Positions 38,195 to 54,265 of a DNA stretch of 64,000 bases are shown here, one piece after another; position 1 is the first letter of the stretch, and every line of letters starts with the position of its first letter. The notes below the pieces were generated by a model. That model was not told the origin of the DNA. It did no database searches and was given only the letters and a program-made list of their open reading frames with translations. The position numbers and the translations under genes were made by a program. Origin of the DNA: Candidatus Magasanikiibacteriota bacterium (GTDB lineage: Bacteria; Patescibacteriota; Patescibacteriia; Magasanikbacterales; GWA2-37-8); the NCBI GenBank assembly GCA_963840935.1, contig CAWJAS010000001.1:45902-109901 (forward strand), given 5' to 3'.

Positions 38195-38388
38195 ATTTAT
38201 TTTTAGTTAATAAAATTATTTTGAAATTTTTCGCTGTCTCATTCTATTTTTAATGTATCGTTCAACGGCCTCTTTTGTAGTCAGCCAGTCCCTACCTTCT
38301 TTGTGTGCTTCCAGTTTTCCTTGTCGGGCAAGTAAGTTTAGATATTTTGCGGAGTGGGCGCGTGTATGAGAAGTTTCGCCAACTTTCT

Positions 38389-38763
38389 TTATTGATCAAT
38401 CACTTTGTCTGTTTTCAAAATATCTCGCTTATCTTCACCCGTCGTCACCTGCTTGATGACTATAAATTTCACAATTTTGTCAGTATGATTAATAAAGGTG
38501 TGCGGTGTGTTTTCTGTTTCAATCAAATCACCAGCTTTGACAATCTGACTTTCGATTTTATCGCCGACTTTCCATTCAGCAGTCAGTTCGCCTTCAATAA
38601 TGTACAAACTTTCCAAAATCTTTTCATGATGATGCCAAGTTTGGGTTGTACCCCCTACTTGTTCATTATAGTGTAGCTCATATTCATCACGAAGATAATA
38701 GCGAACGTTTAACCCTTCCGGTTTTGAAACAGACAAAGATTCTTCACGTTTAACTATTTTCAT
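38389..38763 (-). CDS. cupin domain protein
   Basis: HHHEKILESLYIIEGEL...PHTFIN two-His cupin motifs. Confidence 0.65.
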   Translation of the reverse strand: MKIVKREESLSVSKPEGLNVRYYLRDEYELHYNEQVGGTTQTWHHHEKILESLYIIEGELTAEWKVGDKIESQIVKAGDLIETENTPHTFINHTDKIVKFIVIKQVTTGEDKRDILKTDKVIDQ

Positions 38764-38851
38764 AGTATTAATCTTATTTTTTAGAATAGCTTTTTGGCAA
38801 TTTTACATAAGGGGCGCGCTTATCCAAATTATTTTTTGCGGTTGTAACCTT

Positions 38852-38886
38852 GACAGAATAGCCGTTATTTGCTATATTGAAATGTC
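38852..38886 (+). promoter_or_regulatory. sigma70-like promoter (TTGACA, 17 bp spacer, TATATT)
   Basis: Consensus hexamers upstream of the 38975 ORF; GAAGGAGG RBS at about 38955. Confidence 0.5.
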
Positions 38887-38974
38887 AATAGTTGAGAAAT
38901 CGTCAAACCAAAAGAGTGGTTTTTCGCTGTTGCGAGGGTCTGCTCTTTTACAAATTTTGAAGGAGGAACATAAG

Positions 38975-39223
38975 ATGGGGAACAAAAGTATTTGCCGATC
39001 AGTAATGTTTGGCGCTATCATAGGATTATCGCTAGGGCTATTTCATTTCTGGCCATTCACACTGGTATTTATGCTCCTCGGAGGGATTGTTGCCGTGGTG
39101 ATCAGTGTAATAACTGGTCATGCAATAAACTTTCTACTTGTGCTAGTTATCGAGTATCTGCTCATGGTGTCGATCATGTTCATTGCGTTGTATGTACACG
39201 GCCGACGAAATGATAAAGGATGA
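38975..39223 (+). CDS. small hypothetical membrane protein (three TM helices)
   Basis: RBS-supported ATG; hydrophobic 82-aa product. Confidence 0.4.
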   Translation: MGNKSICRSVMFGAIIGLSLGLFHFWPFTLVFMLLGGIVAVVISVITGHAINFLLVLVIEYLLMVSIMFIALYVHGRRNDKG

Positions 39224-39309
39224 AAAGAGCAGATCCGGTTCAAACGCAAGGCGTTGGCTATATAGCTGACGCTTTTTTCTTATGGGCAAAATATAATTTG
39301 AAAGAAAAT

Positions 39310-39410
39310 GTCGCCTAACGTCAGGGATGTGAGAAGTTGCGACCAACGGGAGCAATTTGGGTGAAGAAGTCTGCAAGACTTCGTAACCTCATATCCCTTG
39401 TTATATCCCC
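39310..39410. repeat. attC-like imperfect-palindrome element E0
   Basis: Left arm GCCTAACGTCAGGGATGTGAGAAGTT; right arm CTCATATCCCTTGTTATAT; same family as E1-E5. Confidence 0.5.
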
Positions 39411-39504
39411 CATGGGGCTAAAATTTAGTGCAACGTCCCGAAGGGAAATTTCAGAGTTTGAGTCGTGACATTTATTTGTTAAGGGCAAAACTTCTACATT
39501 ACTA

Positions 39505-40050
39505 TTATTTCGATTCTAAATATTTTTTCAGTTTAGCAAATGGTTTGATTGCTAAGTATGTTTTTTGGTCATCATCTTCATCAAGTGACGCTCTGGTAAT
39601 AGCATAACCTTCCGGAATAAAAATCTTATCCCACCCATAACCATTATTTCCTGAAGGTTTCTCTGCAATTTCACCGCCTAAACTACCTTCAAACAATTCT
39701 AAATCTTTACCATCATAATAACCAAAAACACATCTTGCCGTTGCTTTTCTTGTTAATCCATTGCCAATCATTGAGCAGATTACCTCAAACGGAATCTTTT
39801 CTGCAAAGAATTTTATGAAAGGACCAGGCAATCCACCAAGAGCGTCAAATTCTAAAGCAACATCTTCAACAATAACCGGTTTCTTTATTAGCTCGTAAGC
39901 TTGTTTTACTTTATGTTCCGCAATTTCGTTCAAATCGGTAGATTGGATTTCATCTAAGTTCAGTTTGACATGATTTACAGTATAACCAAGATACTTGGAT
40001 AGATAATCCGCTTTATTTTGATTACCTGTGATAAAAGTTACATTTGCCAT
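39505..40050 (-). CDS. non-canonical purine NTP pyrophosphatase (Ham1/RdgB family)
   Basis: MANVTFITGNQNK... and conserved Ham1 blocks. Confidence 0.8.
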   Translation of the reverse strand: MANVTFITGNQNKADYLSKYLGYTVNHVKLNLDEIQSTDLNEIAEHKVKQAYELIKKPVIVEDVALEFDALGGLPGPFIKFFAEKIPFEVICSMIGNGLTRKATARCVFGYYDGKDLELFEGSLGGEIAEKPSGNNGYGWDKIFIPEGYAITRASLDEDDDQKTYLAIKPFAKLKKYLESK

Positions 40051-40074
40051 AATAAATGAATGAAAAAAAGCATA

Positions 40075-40210
40075 GTTTTAAAAAGTTCTGCCCATCCTTT
40101 TTGCCACGATTCAAATTTGGGTGAAGAAAATTTGCATTCTTTAGATTTATTTTTAGTGCAAAATTTCTGAACCGGATATGCCGTGTTAGGCGATGTAAAA
40201 AATAACCCCC
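40075..40210. repeat. attC-like element E1
   Basis: Right end GAACCGGATATGCCGTGTTAGGCGATGTAAAAAATAACCCCC abuts the GNAT stop codon; GTTAGGC matches the GTTRRRY core. Confidence 0.5.
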
Positions 40211-40701
40211 TAAATTTTTAATTCTAAATGTATGGCGTTGTATTTTGTGTCCGTTTCTGATTGTTCAATGTTAGTTATTTGGTAACCTCTTGTCAAAAGC
40301 ACCCTAAGCATTTCTGTCGAAACATTATAGACTTTTACGGTTACGGATTTATACTCATTAGCTCGAGCAAATTGTTCATTATTTTCAAAAAGCTTTGTGG
40401 CGATTCCTTTATTTCGGTGTTCTTTTAAAACACCCATAACCCAAATATATAAAGAGCCGTCTCTATTATAAGAAATTGAATCGCCAACAACTTGGCCATC
40501 AACCTTCGCTATGAAAATTTTTGGTACTAATACTTTTAATTTTTCTTGATAATGTTCTAATGAATAAGGATCCTGTTCATACATCCCTTTGAAAATTTTC
40601 AAGTTTGCGAGAACAATTTGCTCGAGTTGATCGTTATTTCCTTCAGATATTTCAAATTGGTTGGGTTGTTCCATATTCGGACGCGGTAATACGTTTTTCA
40701 T
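40210..40701 (-). CDS. GNAT family N-acetyltransferase
   Basis: Acetyl-CoA-binding motif (VLKEHRNKGIATKLF). Confidence 0.7.
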   Translation of the reverse strand: MKNVLPRPNMEQPNQFEISEGNNDQLEQIVLANLKIFKGMYEQDPYSLEHYQEKLKVLVPKIFIAKVDGQVVGDSISYNRDGSLYIWVMGVLKEHRNKGIATKLFENNEQFARANEYKSVTVKVYNVSTEMLRVLLTRGYQITNIEQSETDTKYNAIHLELKI

Positions 40702-40859
40702 AAAAATTTAGGGGGTTATTTTTTTATTTTGCATAACGTTTACGAGTATCCGAAGTTTTTCTGAAGCGGAGCGAAAAAAAATTTTGGGTGAAGGCTTTTG
40801 TATAAAAGCCGTAACCGGATACTCGTTGTTAGCTGATGTATTTTGATGACTTTTATTTA
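40702..40859. repeat. attC-like element E2
   Basis: Arms AACGTTTACGAGTATCCGAAG and CCGGATACTCGTTGTTAGC; centre TTCTGAAGCGGAGCG...TTTTGGGTGAAGG shared with E5. Confidence 0.55.
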
Positions 40860-41942
40860 TTATAATAATTTTTGAGCAAAAACAAAAACCATTCCATCAT
40901 ATCCAACTTTTTCTTTATCACTTCCTTCTAAAACAGACATTTCAATAACTTTAAATTTATTTTGTTCAAGATATTGAGCAATATCTTCTTCATTAATTTT
41001 TGTGGCTGGCATTTTTTCTTCTCCTACTTGATACCACTCAGCATTTCTTATCGCGGATAGTGAAAGATATCCGCTGGGTTTAATCATATCAGTTATATTT
41101 TTCATTCCTTGTTCCCATGTCGCTCGATCTGACGTTGCTGATTCAATTGTAAAATTTGAAGTTAGTAATTCCGTGCTTGCTTCTCTGCCTGAAGCTGTAA
41201 CTGCGTCATATTGTTCATCGGTAGGCAATTCGAGACCTTCTACAAAAACATTGCCATGGGTTACTGATCCAACCACGGCCCTAAGGTGCTTTTTCATATC
41301 TTCTATATCTTCGCTTTCAAGTAGTTTTAAAACATTCTGCGCATGTGTTTTTGTTTTTTCATCATCTAATTCGGTTTGTTTTTTAAGAATAGACATGTAT
41401 TTCTCATCATTTTTTAAAGTACGTTGCATTAATGAAAAATATGCATCCCAATTATAGCTATCTTCATCTTGGTCAAGCCAGCGTTTTACCTCTTCCCGAT
41501 TTTGTTCTAAGAATTCTGAATGGGTTATACTTCCAGCCTCTAGCGATACTGGTATATGCTGGTATATTGTTGGTCCACCACCGACATCTAATACTTTTAT
41601 ATTGTCTTGGGGAAAAGCTTCAAGCAAATTGCGAGCCACTTTTTTTTGAAAATCAAAAATTACTATATTTTCAACTGTTTCATGAGGTAAATTTGTTTTT
41701 TCTACAATATCCTCAATATTTACATGTCCGTCATTTTTATCTAACTCCTTTTTAACTTCCTCCATGGCCCAAGAGAATTTTTCTAAATCAATCCGATCAG
41801 GATAGTATGTTGCAATATAATCTTTAGCACCAAATTTTTCCTTAAAAATGGCGGATTCTTCTTCTTTTATTGATGGTTGAGGTTGCTCCGCACCTTTTGA
41901 AGATTCTGATTTATTAAATTGTTTTATTTTTTCTAAATTCAT
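40860..41942 (-). CDS. putative class I SAM-dependent methyltransferase
   Basis: Motif I VLDVGGGPTIY; otherwise unassigned. Confidence 0.45.
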   Translation of the reverse strand: MNLEKIKQFNKSESSKGAEQPQPSIKEEESAIFKEKFGAKDYIATYYPDRIDLEKFSWAMEEVKKELDKNDGHVNIEDIVEKTNLPHETVENIVIFDFQKKVARNLLEAFPQDNIKVLDVGGGPTIYQHIPVSLEAGSITHSEFLEQNREEVKRWLDQDEDSYNWDAYFSLMQRTLKNDEKYMSILKKQTELDDEKTKTHAQNVLKLLESEDIEDMKKHLRAVVGSVTHGNVFVEGLELPTDEQYDAVTASGREASTELLTSNFTIESATSDRATWEQGMKNITDMIKPSGYLSLSAIRNAEWYQVGEEKMPATKINEEDIAQYLEQNKFKVIEMSVLEGSDKEKVGYDGMVFVFAQKLL

Positions 41943-42121
41943 AAAGTCACCAAAATATTTCAGCTAACGTATCCGAATATGAGAAGTTTTTGCCCGCTTC
42001 CTTATCATATTTCAAAAGAAGAAAAGGGCAAAAATTTGGGTAAAAAATGAAATTCAAGTCCATTGTATTATAAAGAGAATTTCATTTTTTCCTCATATTC
42101 GGTGTTGTGCGATGTAAATTT
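41943..42121. repeat. attC-like element E3
   Basis: Arms CTAACGTATCCGAATATGAG and CTCATATTCGGTGTTGTGCGATGTAAA; inner inverted repeat TTTTTGCCC / GGGCAAAAA. Confidence 0.55.
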
Positions 42122-42430
42122 TTATTTTTCTTTGTTAATCCACTTTTTATCAATCGCTTCTTCTAAATCAATACCAAGTAAATGCGCATTAACTATGGCC
42201 ATTCCAACAACATCAGCTAGCTCCTTCGCCAATTCCTTTTTCGAAACTTCTTCGGGAACGTGTTTTTCTGGACGACTCTTTTTTCGGTGAATTAAAACAG
42301 CTTGAGTAAGTTCACCAACTTCCTCATATAATTTTAACAAAGCAAAATCTTCATCAATTTTGACATTGTATTTTTGGCCATAGTTAATCGCATTTTCTAC
42401 GACCCTTTTTTGTAGTTCTTTGAAATCCAT
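42122..42430 (-). CDS. MazG-like nucleotide pyrophosphohydrolase domain protein
   Basis: EExGE motif (EEVGELTQAV) and AIVNAHLLGIDLEEAI; start trimmed to MDFKEL so the ORF does not overlap E4. Confidence 0.55.
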   Translation of the reverse strand: MDFKELQKRVVENAINYGQKYNVKIDEDFALLKLYEEVGELTQAVLIHRKKSRPEKHVPEEVSKKELAKELADVVGMAIVNAHLLGIDLEEAIDKKWINKEK

Positions 42431-42625
42431 AAAAGAAAAATTAAAATTTATTTCGCACAACGTTTGTGTATAGCAGAAGTTTTTGCCCGCTTCCTTATTA
42501 TATTTTTTAAAGATAGAAAAGGGCAAAAATTTGGATGAAGGAAATTGCGCTACCTTATTTTATTGTAAAAATGCGCAATTTCTTGAATCTGCTATACGCT
42601 GTTGTACGATGTTGGCTTTCCATTT
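42431..42625. repeat. attC-like element E4
   Basis: Arms ACAACGTTTGTGTATAGCAGAAG and CTGCTATACGCTGTTGTACGATGTTGGC; same TTTTTGCCCGCTTCCTTAT centre as E3. Confidence 0.55.
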
Positions 42626-42726
42626 TATTCCATTATTTGGGCAGTTTTTGATCGCAATCATTGACAGGTGGGGCGCGATCGTGTTAGATTAGTCTGTCGC
42701 CCATAACACAAAGGAGGTAGCGGCAC

Positions 42727-43020
42727 ATGACACACGAAGAAGTCGAACAGCTGGTAGAACGTGTGAAAAGCAGCGGATCAGCGGTTATCGAAGCCATGAC
42801 CGAGGAGGAGCTTGCGGAGCTGGAGGCACATCTTCAGACATGTGATGAGGAAAGGTGCATGAAGGTTCGGGAGGACGAAGCGCAGACTCGAGGGGGATTC
42901 GGTGCGTACCTTCGGGGAGAACACTCCTACGGTGGTACGTCCCACAGGGACTTGGGGGTGCACTTCCCTCGAGTCTGGGGTGAGGTAGGTTTCGTCAACT
43001 CTGTCGTCTCTGGCAAGTAG
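42727..43020 (+). CDS. GC-rich orphan small protein, in inverted orientation relative to neighbouring cassettes, with its own promoter
   Basis: TTGACA, 17 bp spacer, TTAGAT promoter at about 42660-42694; AAAGGAGG RBS; flanked by a 26-bp inverted repeat (42601-42626 / 43122-43150). Confidence 0.45.
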   Translation: MTHEEVEQLVERVKSSGSAVIEAMTEEELAELEAHLQTCDEERCMKVREDEAQTRGGFGAYLRGEHSYGGTSHRDLGVHFPRVWGEVGFVNSVVSGK

Positions 43021-43117
43021 AGCGCCCCGCCGCCCCTCGCTCACACGACCCGCTTGGCTATATGCCTCGTGGGTCGCTTTCATTTCAGGAGAGAAAACTG
43101 CCCAAATAATTGAATTG

Positions 43118-43280
43118 AAAAAGAAAAATGGAAAGCCAATTTCGTACAACGTTAGGCATATCCGAAGTTTTTCTGAAGCGTAGCGGAGGAAAAATTTGGG
43201 AGAGAAAATTTTGCTTTCCTTAATTTATTATAAAGTGCAAAATTTTTGAACCGGATATGCCTTGTTATGTGATGTAAAAT
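43118..43280. repeat. attC-like element E5
   Basis: Arms ACAACGTTAGGCATATCCGAAG and GAACCGGATATGCCTTGTTATGTGATGTAAAA; 10-bp perfect arm complementarity (GGCATATCCG / CGGATATGCC). Confidence 0.55.
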
Positions 43281-43329
43281 TCTTTCTTTTTTCTTTTTTT
43301 AAATTTGCTTTTATTCTAAATGATAAATA

Positions 43330-43385
43330 AGTTTTTTGTTTTTGATTTTGGGCAGAGGGGTAAGGGGTGAATGCCCAAAATCAAA
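43330..43385. terminator. strong bidirectional hairpin (TTTGATTTTGGGCA...TGCCCAAAATCAAA)
   Basis: 14-bp perfect stem. Confidence 0.55.
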
Positions 43386-43396
43386 AACTCCTTATT

Positions 43397-44206
43397 TTAA
43401 ATATTTATTTGGTTATTTTTAACAATAATAGCTCCTGATTTTTCAATTATTGATTTTACAGCGAGAATCTTATCTTTAAATTCTTCAGAATTTTTAGTCA
43501 AACAATTATTACAGTCCGCACTCCATTTAATAATCATTAATTTTGCAGCTCCTTTGATAATGTCGTATAAATCTTCAGGTGAAACAAATTTAGCTTTAAA
43601 TTTTGTTGCTTTTTCTAGTTTTCTTGATTTTTCATCAAGCGCTGAATATGATAGTCCTAATCCTTGAGCTACGGAAAAAAAGTGCGTTAAAGAATTTCTT
43701 AATTTTCTAAGATCGTCAGCCGTAATATGTTTTAATCTCTCTTGATTATTTTTGCACCACCCGTTTTCTGAATTTAAACAAAATTCTTTTATAAATTTTT
43801 TCACATTTTCTTGATTCATCGCTTTTTTGATAATTTCTTTTTCATCGGAAGTCTTATTTTCGTAAGCTATGTTCAGGCAAAATAGAGTTTCTAGATTGGC
43901 AAACAAAACTATCATTTCTGAGCGAATAGGTCTATCTATTTTTAATTTATCGGCAATAGTGGCAGGCGGTTCTGAAAAAGTAAATTTAAAATCAATTGAA
44001 TTTTCTTTAAGTTTACCAGCAAGCACTTCAACAAGTTCTATCGTCTCCAGATGCTGTTTTCTAATTGATTCTAATTTTTTATCGAAATTTATTAAATCTT
44101 CAATTTCTTTTTCGATTTCCTGTAAAAAAAATATGACTTCTCGTAAATTTGGAGAAATTAAAACTTTATCGCCATCAAAAATAAAATGTGTGCTTTGATT
44201 TTGCAT
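43397..44206 (-). CDS. hypothetical protein with Rx4H (HEPN-like) motif
   Basis: RKLRNSLTHFF fits the HEPN Rx4-6H signature; adjacent to the R-M module; weak. Confidence 0.35.
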   Translation of the reverse strand: MQNQSTHFIFDGDKVLISPNLREVIFFLQEIEKEIEDLINFDKKLESIRKQHLETIELVEVLAGKLKENSIDFKFTFSEPPATIADKLKIDRPIRSEMIVLFANLETLFCLNIAYENKTSDEKEIIKKAMNQENVKKFIKEFCLNSENGWCKNNQERLKHITADDLRKLRNSLTHFFSVAQGLGLSYSALDEKSRKLEKATKFKAKFVSPEDLYDIIKGAAKLMIIKWSADCNNCLTKNSEEFKDKILAVKSIIEKSGAIIVKNNQINI

Positions 44207-44218
44207 ATTTCAATATTA

Positions 44219-44983
44219 TTATTTCAATCTACGGATAGCCAAGTCAACATATCTTTTTTCTTTTTCAATCCCAATCCAATTTCTGCCAAGTGCTTTTGCA
44301 ACAAAAGCGGTTGTACCGCTTCCCAAAAAAGGATCTAGAACAATGTCGTCTTTTTTGCTTGCTGCTAATATCACTTGCTGAATTAGTTTAAGTGGTTTTT
44401 GAGTTGGGTGTGCTTTTATGCCATTTTCATCTTTTAGTCTTTCATTTCCTCTGCATAAACCAAAGACCCAATCCGTATCTTTCATTTGCTTTCCGCCGTT
44501 CATTATTTTCATTTGCTCATAGTTAAAAGTATAGCCCTTGCATGTTTTATCTTTCACTGCCCAAACCAGTGTTTCGTGATTATTTGTAAATCTTCGCCCG
44601 TTAAGATTTGGCAGAGCGTCAGTTTTAACCCAAATCACATCATTCAAAAACCAAATTCCTAGATCCTGCATAATTGTCCCGACACGAAAAATATTGTGAT
44701 ACATTCCAATAACCCACATTGTTCCTGTTGGTTTTAATATCCTTTGGCTTTCTTTGAGCCAGTTTTTTGTAAAATTATCATAGTCCTCGTAGCTTTCAAA
44801 TTTATCCCATTCATCATCAACTGGAATAACCTCAGTGCCATTAGCTCTTTTTAATCTTTTGCCTTTTGGGAGTTGTAAAAAATATGGCGGATCTGCAAAA
44901 ATCAAATCAATAGAGTTGTCTGGAAATTCTTTTAATATTTCTAGACAATCGCCATGAATTACTTTGTTTATATATTTTTGCAT
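44219..44983 (-). CDS. beta-class N6-adenine/N4-cytosine DNA methyltransferase (DpnA-like)
   Basis: N-terminal IHGDCLEILKEFPDNSIDLIFADPPY (motif IV DPPY near the N-terminus). Confidence 0.8.
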   Translation of the reverse strand: MQKYINKVIHGDCLEILKEFPDNSIDLIFADPPYFLQLPKGKRLKRANGTEVIPVDDEWDKFESYEDYDNFTKNWLKESQRILKPTGTMWVIGMYHNIFRVGTIMQDLGIWFLNDVIWVKTDALPNLNGRRFTNNHETLVWAVKDKTCKGYTFNYEQMKIMNGGKQMKDTDWVFGLCRGNERLKDENGIKAHPTQKPLKLIQQVILAASKKDDIVLDPFLGSGTTAFVAKALGRNWIGIEKEKRYVDLAIRRLK

Positions 44984-44987
44984 CTAA

Positions 44988-46109
44988 CTAAAAATTATAA
45001 ATAACAAGATGTTCAACTTCTCTATCATTTCTGCCTTTCATATTGTAGAGATATGTTTTTTCAAAACTGTCCACTTTTATTCCTTTTTTATTTTTATACA
45101 AATCATAAATAAAAGCAGTTTTTTTGATAATTAAAATGAAGTTAGCCTTGGTGTTATATAAACATTTAGCCAATCTTTCTTGATCGTTTTTATCAAAAAC
45201 TGCTTTTTCATAATCACTAAAATCAGTATCATAGGGAGGATCAAGAAAAATAAAATCATTTTTATTTAAATCTTTTTGAGAAAGTATTTTTTCAAAATCA
45301 GTATTTAAAATTTTTTTATCTTTAAAAACTTTTTCAACTTCTTCACTAAGTATATAATTTACTTTACTTCTAAAATCTTTGTTGTTGTATGCAATACCGC
45401 CATAGGGAATGTTGAAATCACCATTGGCATTAAATCTAAACATTGAGGCATAGCAAAACTCTCTTATAAAATAATAATTTGATATTTTTTTTGCTAAAGA
45501 TGTTTTGTATTTTGAACCATTTTTATTCATTACATCTCGAAAGTGCATATAAAAACCGCTCCTAAAAGCTGTTTCAATGTTTTTGTGCAAATCGCCGTCT
45601 GGCAATTTGCCACGATCCTTTTCAATTTTTTTAGTTCTGCTAATTTTTGAAATTAAATTTTTAATTACTTCTTCAAGTAAATTATTTGGGTCAAGGGCAA
45701 AATTTTTCGAAAACAAACCATTAAATTGATCCTCTTTTGCTTTGAGTTTTTTAGTTATTATTTCCTTAACTTCTTTTTCTGTTTTTTTATCGTCCTTATA
45801 TTCTTCGTAAAGTTTAATAAAATCATTTTCAAAAATACTTATATACTTTGGAATTTTTTCCCAGTTATCGACATAATCATATAGACATTTTTTAAATTCC
45901 TTTTTATCATTTTCACCTTTGATAAAGCGATAAAATTCAACCAACTCTGCACAAATATCATTTATTATCGCTTTTTTTGGTTGAAGTTTAAAAAATATTG
46001 CTCCGCCACCAAAAAACGGCTCGATATATCGAGTGTGTTTTGGTATGAGATTTTTAATCTGCTCATACTCCTTAGATTTTCCACCAGGCCATTTAATAAG
46101 TGAATTCAT
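44988..46109 (-). CDS. Dam-family (D12 class) N6-adenine DNA methyltransferase
   Basis: KWPGGK, EPFFGGGAIF motif I and DPPY motif IV in the alpha-class order. Confidence 0.8.
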   Translation of the reverse strand: MNSLIKWPGGKSKEYEQIKNLIPKHTRYIEPFFGGGAIFFKLQPKKAIINDICAELVEFYRFIKGENDKKEFKKCLYDYVDNWEKIPKYISIFENDFIKLYEEYKDDKKTEKEVKEIITKKLKAKEDQFNGLFSKNFALDPNNLLEEVIKNLISKISRTKKIEKDRGKLPDGDLHKNIETAFRSGFYMHFRDVMNKNGSKYKTSLAKKISNYYFIREFCYASMFRFNANGDFNIPYGGIAYNNKDFRSKVNYILSEEVEKVFKDKKILNTDFEKILSQKDLNKNDFIFLDPPYDTDFSDYEKAVFDKNDQERLAKCLYNTKANFILIIKKTAFIYDLYKNKKGIKVDSFEKTYLYNMKGRNDREVEHLVIYNF

Positions 46110-46112
46110 AAA

Positions 46113-46931
46113 TTATCCGAGATAAGTTTTTTTGATTGAATCTAGCGATTTTTTAATTAGATCGGCTTTTTCTTTGTACGCATCAAGCACAATTTTATAT
46201 CCTTCATCTGATTTGCATACAAAATCCCAAAAGTCTTTTCCGATTAAAAGCTCATCGTCTGAAAAAAATTGTCTGACCCGTTCTTGTTTCCATGGTTTTC
46301 CCTCGCCGAAACGATTATATGCAGTTGCAAAAAACATTTGTATTTTTGTATCTTGTGGCAATGTATTTGATAAAATTGCAAATTGCTCTAGCAGAGCTTC
46401 CTTTTCTGATCTAGCTTTCTTATTGTCTAGATCGCCACCAATTTTTAACTCAATCAAAAAATTATCGCCCGTTTCTTTATCAATCAAGTAGTAATCACTA
46501 TCATGCCTTTTTGTTACGAGTGATTGATCTTCGGGCTTAACACGCAAAAACTGATAATCTTCCGCCGTCGGCGGAGCTATTTCTCTGCGTTTATATTTTT
46601 CTAACAATTCCGCCATGTCTTGGGTTTGTTTCAGACTAAGTGGCCCCTCAACGTTTTGCTTAACTTCGTATGTTAATTTTGCAATGTTGATAGCCATTTT
46701 TTCCAGCATATTACCCAAAGAGCTATCAAGTGATCGCACTAAAGCAGTGTAATATTGTATTTCTGGACCAAGAACCGCAATAAAAACATTATGAATTTTC
46801 ATGTTTAGCGTTCCTGACGGATCTTCTAGCTCGCCCTCGTGTCTTCCTTGGAATCCAACTGCGAAAGATTCAACTGACGCGTGAACAATAGATCTTATAG
46901 CTTCTTTTTTGCTTAAAATATCTTGTGTCAT
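46113..46931 (-). CDS. putative type II restriction endonuclease partner of the two methyltransferases
   Basis: 272-aa ORF translationally coupled upstream of the methyltransferase genes; the endonuclease assignment rests on gene context only. Confidence 0.4.
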   Translation of the reverse strand: MTQDILSKKEAIRSIVHASVESFAVGFQGRHEGELEDPSGTLNMKIHNVFIAVLGPEIQYYTALVRSLDSSLGNMLEKMAINIAKLTYEVKQNVEGPLSLKQTQDMAELLEKYKRREIAPPTAEDYQFLRVKPEDQSLVTKRHDSDYYLIDKETGDNFLIELKIGGDLDNKKARSEKEALLEQFAILSNTLPQDTKIQMFFATAYNRFGEGKPWKQERVRQFFSDDELLIGKDFWDFVCKSDEGYKIVLDAYKEKADLIKKSLDSIKKTYLG

Positions 46932-47004
46932 ATTTTGTAAGTTATATTTTTAAAAGTTTCCTCTATTATACCTCAAAAAAATCTAAAATAGAAATCGTTT
47001 TTTG

Positions 47005-47035
47005 CTGCCCCTTTGTGGGCAGAAAAAACACCTTA
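47005..47035. terminator. bidirectional terminator hairpin (GCTGCCCCTTTGTGGGCAGAAAAAA)
   Basis: GC stem with flanking T and A runs. Confidence 0.55.
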
Positions 47036-47290
47036 TACCCCTATATAAATAGATAAAAAAACTTATCTTTCCTTATTATAAAAAAGCAAATTTAAAAAAA
47101 GAAAAAAGAAAGAATTTTATTTCACATAACTACCTTTATCATGACTAGTGGTAAAAACCGCTAAAATATGATAAAATTTTTGAGAAATTGGGGTTATAGG
47201 CGACGAAGGTGAGAGAAAAGTAAATTTATTTGCTTTTCCGAGCCAAGGAGCTTATATACTGTGTATATAGCCCCTGGGGGTATGGCCATC

Positions 47291-53047: not shown

Positions 53048-53085
53048 AAAAGCCGCCGATTCGGAAAACGGCGGCAATACTCAAC
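53040..53085. terminator. bidirectional terminator (GCCGCCGATTCGGAAAACGGCGGC)
   Basis: Serves the convergent 50084 gene and the 53109-53534 gene. Confidence 0.6.
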
Positions 53086-53108
53086 AAACAAAAAGGACTG
53101 TCGGCTAG

Positions 53109-53534
53109 CTAGCTCGCGGAAGCGAAACGGGCGCGCTCGTCGGCGCCGCAGATGCGCATGCGCAGGGGGCTGTCGTCCGGAATCCGGTCGAGCAGGCAGG
53201 TGAGCACGTTCACGGGTGCCTTGTGAACGAACTGGCGGAAGCTGAGCTTCCAGCGGATTCCGCGGGTGCCCTTGTACTCGACGAGGCCCGGGATGAGGTT
53301 GGCGGCCTTCTTCTTGTCCGCCTTCTTGGCGGCGCCCGTCATGGTGACCGGGTACACGAAGTCCCGGAAGAATGCCGTTTCCGACACCACGATTTCCACG
53401 CCCACATCGTCGATGACGATTTTGGGCTCGCTCGTGGGCAGAAGCATCTTCGTGAAGGCGCACGTCATCCGTGGGTTGGCCGTCGGCCCCTGTCTGCGGC
53501 TTTTCTGTTCGGGCCCGTTTGCTCGGTGCTTCAT
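53109..53534 (-). CDS. GC-rich orphan protein (hypothetical)
   Basis: AAAGGAGAGACGA RBS before ATG; promoter TTGACA, 17 bp spacer, TATTAT inside a palindromic region; other frames give low-complexity Arg/Gly/Pro products. Confidence 0.45.
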   Translation of the reverse strand: MKHRANGPEQKSRRQGPTANPRMTCAFTKMLLPTSEPKIVIDDVGVEIVVSETAFFRDFVYPVTMTGAAKKADKKKAANLIPGLVEYKGTRGIRWKLSFRQFVHKAPVNVLTCLLDRIPDDSPLRMRICGADERARFASAS

Positions 53535-53567
53535 TCGTCTCTCCTTTGTTGAGGTTTGAACCAAAAA

Positions 53568-53640
53568 GAACGCTGTCAAACTGACAACAAATAATATCAT
53601 ATTTAATACTATTTGTCAATTGATGACAGCGTTCTTATGT
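53568..53640 (-). promoter_or_regulatory. promoter embedded between perfect 11-bp inverted repeats GAACGCTGTCA / TGACAGCGTTC
   Basis: TTGACA and TATTAT hexamers lie inside the 48-bp segment between the inverted repeats; candidate operator. Confidence 0.45.
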
Positions 53641-53672
53641 TTTTATTACTTCGCCACTCCTTACTTCATTCG

Positions 53673-53689
53673 TCGGGGCGACAGGACTT
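53673..53689 (-). other. duplicated 3' fragment of tRNA-Pro (T-loop nt ~58 to discriminator)
   Basis: Minus-strand AAGTCCTGTCGCCCCGA matches the end of the tRNA at 53861-53934. Confidence 0.7.
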
Positions 53690-53860
53690 GGTCTCGGCTC
53701 TCGTCGGCTTCCGCCTCCTCGGCTCCCAAAGGGATCCCTTTGGGACTGACCACCGCCTCGCGGTTTGGTTAGCTCGCAAGCTCACCAAACATCGCTCCGG
53801 CGTTCAAATCCTGGCGCGAGCAAAACTATTTGCTCGCTTCGCCATTCCTCACTTCGTTCG
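53690..53860 (-). repeat. TAR element, Pro locus copy
   Basis: 5' box CGAACGAAGTGAGGAATGGCGAAGCGAGC, hairpin GCGAGCAAATAGTTTTGCTCGC, core GGATTTGAACGCCGGAGCGATGTTTGGTGAGCTTGCGAGCTAACCAAACCGCGAGGCGGTGG, hairpin, 3' box. Confidence 0.7.
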
Positions 53861-53934
53861 TCGGGGCGACAGGACTTGAACCTGCGACCTTCTGCTCCCA
53901 AAGCAGACGCTCTAGCCAACTGAGCTACGCCCCG
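53861..53934 (-). tRNA. tRNA-Pro(TGG)
   Basis: Cloverleaf by eye; anticodon loop TTTGGGA; acceptor CGGGGCG/CGCCCCG. Confidence 0.85.
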
Positions 53935-54026
53935 GGACTTCGTGTTGTCTGTTAACAACACTACGCCCCGTAAACTAAAGTTGTTTACAGGGCGTAGTCC
54001 CAACCAATGGTTGGGACAAAGACCTG

Positions 54027-54098
54027 TGCCGAGGGCGAGGATTGAACTCGCGACGCAAGGATTTTCAGTCCTTCGCTCTACCACTGAGCTACCTCGGC
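54027..54098 (-). tRNA. tRNA-Phe(GAA)
   Basis: GCCGAGGTAGCTCAGTGGTAGAGC...; anticodon loop CTGAAAA; T-arm GAGTTCAATCCTC. Confidence 0.88.
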
Positions 54099-54258
54099 TT
54101 CGCTACGCTACGCCGAGTAAACCTCGGCTTTTCCATACATTACGCCGAGTAAACCTCGGCTTTTCCATACATTACGCCGAGTAAACCTCGGCTTTTCCAT
54201 ACATTACGCCGAGTAAACCTCGGCTTTTCCATACACTACGCCGAGTAAACCTCGGCTT
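54099..54258 (-). repeat. five tandem 32-bp direct repeats each retaining the first 8 nt of tRNA-Phe (GCCGAGGT) plus a hairpin
   Basis: Minus-strand unit GCCGAGGTTTACTCGGCGTAATGTATGGAAAA, head-to-tail with no spacers, directly 5' of the tRNA. Confidence 0.8.
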
Positions 54259-54265
54259 TTTCGTT

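Follow-up and report, generated by a model that had tools for sequence, protein, structure and literature searches.

The closest described counterparts of the locus analysed here are the gene cassettes of integrons, in particular of sedentary chromosomal integrons, whose arrays are termed CALIN if no integrase is nearby. In those arrays and in the present one, the genes are short, tightly packed, functionally unrelated and for the most part without promoters, and behind each of them lies an imperfect palindrome (attC) with ...AAC and GTT... cores, a covarying L box and one strand that folds better than the other. Shuffled cassette contexts in other genomes are also common to both, as is a divergently transcribed tyrosine recombinase, which is observed here beside related arrays. 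There are differences as well. Cassette ends are complementary here over 20–75 nt, compared with 7–12 nt in a class 1 integron control, and the associated recombinases, none of which is situated in the window (the whole stretch of 64,000 nt analysed, from a Candidatus Magasanikiibacteriota bacterium), are 270–280 aa in length and lack the IntI-specific insertion. To our knowledge, how integron cassettes form and how a gene joins its attC site are still unknown.

Toxin–antitoxin cassettes 'containing their own promoter' have been described as a distinct type in chromosomal integrons (PMC13108822). Those of the Vibrio cholerae superintegron, with their own promoter and expression independent of the array promoter, are similar in this respect to the cassette under study. 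The latter, however, contains a single small ORF and no gene pair, and that ORF has no toxin, antitoxin or defence match. It also differs from own-promoter cassettes in that ORFs are exchanged within a conserved promoter–terminator frame, an arrangement of which no description was found. Among the archaea, Ghaly et al. 2022 (PMC9668308) reported attC sites in Nanoarchaeota, as well as attC sites that are nearly identical between domains; CPR/Patescibacteria and inverted repeats have zero occurrences in the text of that paper. The attC motif of the present array is likewise found in DPANN archaea, but the bulk of its matches are from the CPR.

The object described here is a gene cassette with its own promoter, which is a known kind, in a variant integron lineage and with an unusual cassette architecture. 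In a literature whose coverage was incomplete, nothing was found on CPR integrons, on frames that stay conserved while their ORFs are exchanged, or on cassette ends with long, cassette-specific complementarity, so that the absence of such descriptions is weak evidence.

The array and its attC sites

The coordinates of the features discussed below are listed in Table 1. In the array, minus-strand genes of unrelated function are separated by imperfect palindromes of 94–153 nt with ...AAC and GTT... cores. Alignment of five of these attC sites yielded a consensus fold with compensatory changes in 15 of the 31 predicted pairs, and the L-box pairs covary. A covariance model constructed from the five-site alignment gave five strong matches and one weak match (40072–40196, 35.4 bits), all of them on the plus strand. 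None of the sites was found by a strict attC scan, in which RYYYAAC/GTTRRRY cores or a near-perfect L box were required; relaxed criteria found them.

Pairing within the attC sites includes G–T pairs on the plus strand. It is apparent from this that the plus strand is the better-folding bottom strand, the array being read on the minus strand, and the G–T pairs would favour the plus strand in folded bottom-strand recombination. The sequence-only reading of this DNA, made before the present analysis, had described the segment under study as bounded by two oppositely oriented attC-like ends. This is contradicted by the covariance model, which places both flanking sites (a5 and a6 in Table 1) on the plus strand.

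The inner attC motif was observed in at least 119 stretches in species-representative genomes. Among the matches listed, the hosts are mostly CPR/Patescibacteria and DPANN archaea (Woesearchaeota, Pacearchaeota, Nanoarchaeota and Aenigmatarchaeota), with some Bdellovibrionales, Gammaproteobacteria, Chlorobi and cyanobacteria. For the window itself, gene content and a chromosomal gene with a 71.5% match in a Moraniibacteriota genome (L045) point to a CPR host.

Two observations concern the left part of the array. Its end (38290–38390) looks decayed, since what adjoins the stop codon of the cupin gene is just half of an attC-like site, the R''/L'' part (GCGTGTATGAGAAGTTTCGCCAAC). Arms of the kind described below are absent from the Ham1 cassette (39400–40075), whose upstream attC is the weak match, of 35 bits, mentioned above.

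Table 1. Positions of the features of the array and of the cassette under study, in window coordinates
Feature	Position	Strand	Details
Cassette array	38300–47200	− (cassette genes)	Cupin, Ham1, GNAT, NNMT-like methyltransferase, MazG-like and four-gene restriction–modification (R-M) genes; Pfam and attC
attC a5, the cassette's own	42455–42607	+	R'' GCACAAC to R' GTTGTAC; covariance match 42450–42612, 129 bits
Left arm of the cassette-end inverted repeat	42601–42648		Repeat search and gapped alignment; kept in six other copies
Promoter of the reverse-facing unit	42661–42690	+	TTGACA, 18-nt spacer, TAGATT ending at 42690, TG upstream
Shine–Dalgarno sequence	42711–42717	+	AAGGAGG, 9 nt before ATG
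ORF97, variable cargo gene	42727–43020	+	97 aa, no homologue
Branched hairpin within the 3' half of ORF97	42883–42977		Folding z −4.4 (plus strand), −4.8 (minus strand)
3' flank and terminator	43021–43085	+	GAGCGCCCCGCCGCC from 43022, hairpin 43046–43076, then CTTTCATTT
Right arm of the inverted repeat	43094–43150		Includes R'' core GTACAAC of the neighbouring attC and the extra bases 43116–43124
attC a6	43144–43270	+	Belongs to the upstream four-gene R-M cassette and supplies this cassette's start; covariance match 43139–43275, 140 bits

The cassette and its backward-facing unit

The feature under study is one complete integron-type gene cassette of 689 bp, extending in array orientation from 43149 to 42461 and ending in its own attC; the best explanation as a whole, to which this statement belongs, is considered probable. 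The cassette is situated between two co-oriented attC sites and its neighbours are of unrelated function. It ends in an imperfect palindrome that folds as a hairpin, with R'' and R' cores and paired L boxes, and its first bases are complementary to the R'' of its own attC (GTTGTAC/GTACAAC, with the crossover at G|TT). The same frame and attC were found beside different neighbours on five other contigs (L121, L122 and L124–L126). A promoterless ORF co-oriented with the array, which is a typical and not an obligatory trait of cassettes, is not present; the ORF is reversed and has its own promoter and terminator.

The cargo unit, opposed to the array, comprises in order a sigma-70-type promoter, a Shine–Dalgarno sequence, a small ORF and an intrinsic terminator, the hairpin of which has a folding z of −3.2 and is followed by a T-rich run. 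The promoter and the ORF had been recognized in the sequence-only reading. The GC-rich character of the region was confirmed (57.1% G+C for the core, 42649–43093, compared with 33.9% for the array and 38.6% for the window), and so were the plus-strand ORF, which is preceded by a ribosome-binding sequence, and the promoter, which together with the Shine–Dalgarno sequence and the terminator is conserved in six other copies. The description of a cassette with its gene against the direction of the array also stands, as regards both the cassette in an attC array and the gene opposed to the other cassette genes, but the inversion that had been supposed is not supported. Nor is the gene the only one on the opposite strand of the array, as had been claimed. 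A second plus-strand ORF (38975–39223), with its own promoter (TTGACA-17-TATATT, 38850–38878) and terminator (39248–39275), is situated in the same array.

Relatives of the cassette were obtained as three contigs from a metagenome scan with the arm pattern and three more from a look-up of one cargo protein (L120–L122 and L124–L126 in total). The order of the parts is the same in all six: the attC type, the left arm, the TTGACAGG promoter, a Shine–Dalgarno sequence with ATG, the 3' flank, the terminator and the right arm. Frame and arms are 80–89% identical from copy to copy, whereas the ORFs that extend from ATG to stop are unrelated (97, 73 or 114 aa). The attC type of a5 adjoins the left arm in each of these contigs. 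In the promoter, TTGACAGG is kept in the relatives, whose −10 hexamers are TAAAAG, TATGAT and TATCAT. A conserved ACATG is preceded by AAAGGAGGT in three of four aligned copies and by AAAGGGAGG in L120. The 3' flank (GAGCGCC...) starts at the stop codon, or no more than a few bases from it, in the six copies, and the terminator hairpin is kept, with compensatory changes in its stem, in L120–L122 and L124. The cores covary on both sides, being GTTGTAC/GTACAAC here and GTTATAC/GTATAAC in L121 and L122. As in the window, the ORF is opposed to the neighbouring cassette genes in L122 and L125. The gene arrangement of the window itself was reproduced on an independent Logan contig (run ERR12035938). 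To judge from these copies, the frame is a conserved mobile cassette type of other CPR (Patescibacteria) genomes and metagenomes, in which the gene between start and stop differs.

At the position of ORF97, a 73-aa membrane-like peptide is encoded in L121, and a 114-aa ORF with no similarity to ORF97 is present in L120, L122 and L124–L126. In each of the three cargo types, the reading frame stays open from the conserved ATG up to the conserved 3' flank, give or take a few bases, which makes translation of ORF97 likely; the chance of an open frame of 97 codons, as estimated from base composition, is approximately 0.03. Activity of the promoter is presumed, as is translation of ORF97. The product could nevertheless be shorter than predicted, or non-functional, since its C-terminal third, for which disorder is predicted, is encoded across a DNA/RNA hairpin, and since no homologue was found. 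The hairpin has a perfect outer stem of 11 bp (AGACTCGAGGG/CCCTCGAGTCT) and coincides with that disordered part. A single-sequence AlphaFold2 model, in which residues 1–62 are helical and 66–97 disordered, has a pLDDT of 59, which is too low for a fold search.

Searches for relatives of ORF97 returned only the protein itself, both in a word-indexed search of 5.8 billion protein clusters and in a full phmmer search of 1.84 billion representatives; comparison with PDB sequences gave only noise. PADLOC reported nothing, PHROGs gave one weak sub-threshold match, and there was no significant Pfam, toxin, antitoxin or defence family. No DNA relatives of the core were found in plasmids, in phages or in the 119 related loci. 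It may be guessed that ORF97 is an independently expressed small accessory protein, the mRNA of which is antisense to read-through of the array.

Several other identities were considered for the core and set aside. A zinc-binding anti-sigma factor of the zf-HC2 family was suggested by a Pfam score of 16.6 bits (E=0.0086), which is below the cut-off of 22.2, and the required H-x3-C-x2-C motif is broken, the sequence reading H35-x3-C39-x4-C44. A toxin–antitoxin cassette is not indicated, as there is a single ORF and no significant Pfam, PADLOC or PHROG family. The minus-strand ORF at 42778–43149 (123 aa) has no Pfam match and a weaker codon-position signal than ORF97. As to a non-coding RNA, the GC-rich core has no Rfam match, and as a whole it folds no better than shuffled sequences (z of −0.9 and −0.2).

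The composition of the cassette raises the question of its origin. The arms are AT-rich (30–35% G+C), the core is 57% G+C and the boundaries between them are sharp, as might be expected had GC-rich foreign DNA entered the tip of an empty palindromic cassette, an ORF-less ancestor consisting of arm, GGGCAG loop and arm. The inner arm ends (TTTGGGCAG/CTGCCCAAA) do resemble short GGGCAG hairpins at 43338–43388 and at about 47000 of the R-M frame, and distant homologues of the 114-aa cargo occur outside any frame (L123 and L127). If true, such an insertion would afford a glimpse of how cassettes acquire cargo. It is considered unlikely, however, because no empty version of the cassette was found in the metagenome arm-pattern scan, there is no target-site duplication, and the GC-rich promoter and terminator are conserved with the arms, which makes the GC-rich frame old and not a recent arrival here.

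The terminal inverted repeats and compositionally foreign interior could also suggest a miniature transposable element with a passenger gene, or a chimera of assembly. Both are hardly credible. The arms begin exactly at attC cores, every copy lies between attC sites with the same attC of its own, and there is no transposase and no target-site duplication (the flanks being ...ACGCT|GTTGTAC and GTACAAC|GTTAG); as to a chimera, the junctions are reproduced in the independent assembly and in six other contigs. An integron-type cassette with a reversed, self-contained unit is retained as the best explanation of these features.

Complementary cassette ends

A repeat search identified outer arms at 42601–42626 and 43125–43150 (26 nt, 92% identity) and, directly within them, an inner pair at 42627–42648 and 43094–43115 (22 nt, 95%). 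The two pairs are merged by gapped alignment into a left arm of 48 nt and a right arm of 57 nt, with nine extra bases on the right. The 26-bp inverted repeats described in the sequence-only reading are thus present, and longer than claimed, but the right arm had been placed 3 nt off, at 43122–43150. From the core GTTGTAC inwards, the left arm consists of GATGT, TGGCTTTCCATTTT and ATTCCATTATTTGGGCAGTTTT. The surplus of the right arm amounts to 8–10 nt in all copies and is always in the arm beside the terminator. The outer 7 nt of either arm are the ordinary R' and R'' core sites, as at the boundaries of every cassette. Beyond the first 12 nt, the local repeat score is 26.5, compared with 13.5 for the 99th percentile of mismatched cassette ends, and the complementarity is accordingly above chance.

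Complementary ends are not restricted to this cassette. Among the forward-gene cassettes of the array, each with its own sequence, they were found in the R-M cassette (49 nt at 96%, extending to approximately 75 nt) and in the MazG (30 nt), NNMT (26 nt) and GNAT (24 nt, perfect) cassettes; the Ham1 cassette is the sole one in the array with none. When all left ends were compared with all right ends in a matrix, the diagonal was well above the off-diagonal values, which indicates that the complementarity is cassette-specific. In the window and related loci together, 57 cassettes with two attC sites could be scored, and 22 of these exceeded the 99th, and 33 the 95th, percentile of the mismatched-pair control. 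Approximately 40% of the scored family cassettes lack long arms, so arms are not obligatory. In L097, the same 6-nt deletion is present in both arms of an R-M-type frame, from which it is apparent that arms co-evolve. The class 1 integron control, of four cassettes only, gave null scores beyond the 12 nt noted above.

The repeats had been taken in the sequence-only reading as the mark of an inversion, the core having been flipped by recombination of the inverted arms with each other or of two attC-like ends in opposite orientation. The long repeats do surround a gene opposed to its neighbours, as in invertible switches of the fim type, the Hin/Gin type and the shufflons, where inverted repeats likewise surround a short expressed segment, and repeats of 26–48 nt could in principle support rare homologous inversion. 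Here, however, the repeats are cassette boundaries, the flanking attC sites are co-oriented, and arms of equal length occur around forward-facing genes. The orientation of the ORF relative to the arms and attC is identical in all seven copies (the window, L120–L122 and L124–L126), with the surplus bases constantly on the terminator side. No tyrosine recombinase was found in the window, the neighbouring ORFs having other Pfam assignments, and no flip is needed for expression, as the unit has its own promoter and terminator. That reading had proposed a comparison with relatives for the alternative orientation; a single orientation was found in the seven copies sampled and on the independent Logan contig, and this is the outcome that it had named in advance as speaking against inversion. 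Inversion is considered very unlikely on these grounds. The reading had also allowed for repeats explained by likeness within an element family. The architecture is indeed common to the family, but the arm sequences are cassette-specific and are not similar between members, so that the repeats reflect a shared family architecture and not sequence similarity among members. For annotation, long inverted repeats around a cassette are not to be taken as an inversion switch.

The 48- and 57-nt repeats are the two ends of the cassette, each consisting of a core site followed inwards by cassette-specific complementary sequence, as in most cassettes of this attC family. When the cassette ends were joined at the cores in a circular-junction permutation, the sequence folded as one continuous hairpin (−70.8 kcal/mol, z of −14); in the linear sequence, the paired arms stand between the hairpins of the two attC sites. 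Upon excision at the cores and circularization, the arms would thus come to flank the attC and might lengthen its hairpin by approximately 47 bp, while in single-stranded DNA of the array, pairing of the arms could place the two flanking attC hairpins side by side. Extension of the cassette's own attC hairpin after excision is, on these folding models, most likely what the arms provide. We infer that they act at the level of DNA, by favouring folding or synapsis.

The signature in the arms would be no different if they had a role in RNA, or if gene conversion had made them evolve in concert. In the former case, transcripts that read through the array would contain a long stem formed by the arms, which would either be cleaved by RNase III or insulate the cassette, and here that stem would enclose an RNA antisense to ORF97. 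The forward cassettes are compatible with this, in that their arms fill the entire 5' and 3' untranslated regions and end at the start codon, and in that these cassettes lack a Shine–Dalgarno sequence. An RNA-level role is nonetheless improbable, given that the arms are outside ORF97's own transcript, and that the conserved GATGT/ATTTC asymmetry amounts to G–T pairing on the plus (non-coding, bottom) strand, whereas the sense strand receives A–C and A–A mismatches.

Recombinases and exchange frames

No integrase was detected in the 64-kb window by an IntI-like tblastn search and a scan of ten further large ORFs; an IntI with the additional domain beside the array, as in a complete integron, is thus lacking in the window, and mobility here would be historical or provided in trans. 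In 15 of the fetched loci, IntI-like recombinases adjoin arrays of this attC family, and in L124 the gene is 430 nt from the present cassette type. The recombinases beside related arrays are 270–280 aa in length, with NF040815 (XerA/integron integrase) as their best match. Their scores against TIGR02249 are 187–243 bits, compared with a cut-off of 265, and the match is in two stretches. They lack the IntI-specific domain, the region corresponding to roughly residues 180–248 of IntI1, which is thought to read the extrahelical bases of attC. As they are below the cut-off and without this domain, the chemistry of recombination is assumed by analogy. Annotation programs for which the IntI-specific domain is obligatory will report arrays of this kind as lacking an integrase. 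Tyrosine recombinases of this length, approximately 30% identical to IntI1, were observed in CPR and Woesearchaeota at L064, L075, L051, L033, L109, L124 and other loci.

Directly beside the R' core of many cassettes, a recurrent GC-rich module (GTTATAC GCCCCGACGACTGAAAGGAGGAGAGCGCAGCG...) was observed, namely at cassette ends in L040, L078, L003, L034, L091, L067, L108 and L028. It resembles the sequence just 3' of tRNA-Pro in the window (53840–53870) and the stretch (47194–47240) after the last attC-like site (47124–47200), and in L124 a similar sequence separates the integrase from the first cassette. The module may belong to an accessory site or to one resembling attI.

A second reverse-facing, self-promoted frame, to which the plus-strand ORF at 38975–39223 belongs, was observed in the window at 38825–39321, and also in L040 (3590–4100), L020 (1500–2080), L025 (240–800, reverse strand) and L002 (5540–6004). 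It comprises a conserved promoter (TTGACAGA...TATACT), a structured leader of approximately 90 nt that has no Rfam match, AGGAGG and a conserved terminator, and the variable ORF is enclosed by an inverted repeat made up of GGATCTGCTCTTT and AAAGAGCAGATCC. The cargo consists of unrelated small ORFs of 49–82 aa, one of which has DnaJ-type zinc fingers.

The ends of the R-M cassette (window 43264–43396 and 46978–47130), which consist of arms, hairpins and a possible promoter or TATA-like stretch, are 84–98% conserved in L015, L043, L082, L097, L047 and L092. The cargo between them differs, other type II restriction–modification sets and a Nudix-like gene being found; only L082 has the same R-M genes (91% identity).

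Exchange of ORFs from start to stop codon is observed in the GC-rich frame of the present cassette and in the frame at 38825–39321, and differing cargo in the frame at 43264–47130. On a broader and more tentative level, these arrays possibly represent a distinct integron lineage of the CPR and DPANN, with short IntI/XerA-like recombinases that lack the IntI-specific domain and a crossover deep within a long hairpin. Coupled with this proposal, and doubtful to the same degree since the two are judged jointly, is the idea that the conserved promoter/leader and terminator frames form a second tier, at which entire ORFs are replaced precisely between start codon and stop codon. In such a lineage, complementary ends of 20–75 nt may aid folding or bring the flanking sites together, and the second tier, if true, would show how cassettes gain new cargo. 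Co-evolving complementary ends, frames with different genes and recombinases without the IntI-specific domain all bear on the formation and recognition of cassettes, and are testable in the CPR and DPANN.

Outside the array, a second GC-rich island is situated at 53050–53650 (approximately 64% G+C, GC3 of 0.86). It contains a minus-strand ORF (53109–53531, 140 aa) with no Pfam match, and its own promoter region is bracketed by an inverted repeat at about 53555–53645. The island adjoins tRNA-Pro (53860–53934), with a partial tRNA-like duplicate at about 53650–53700, and looks like a small integrated element. Immediately beside tRNA-Phe (54026–54098), approximately five tandem copies of a unit of about 30 nt (CATACATTACGCCGAGTAAACCTCGGCTTTTC) are found at 54100–54260.
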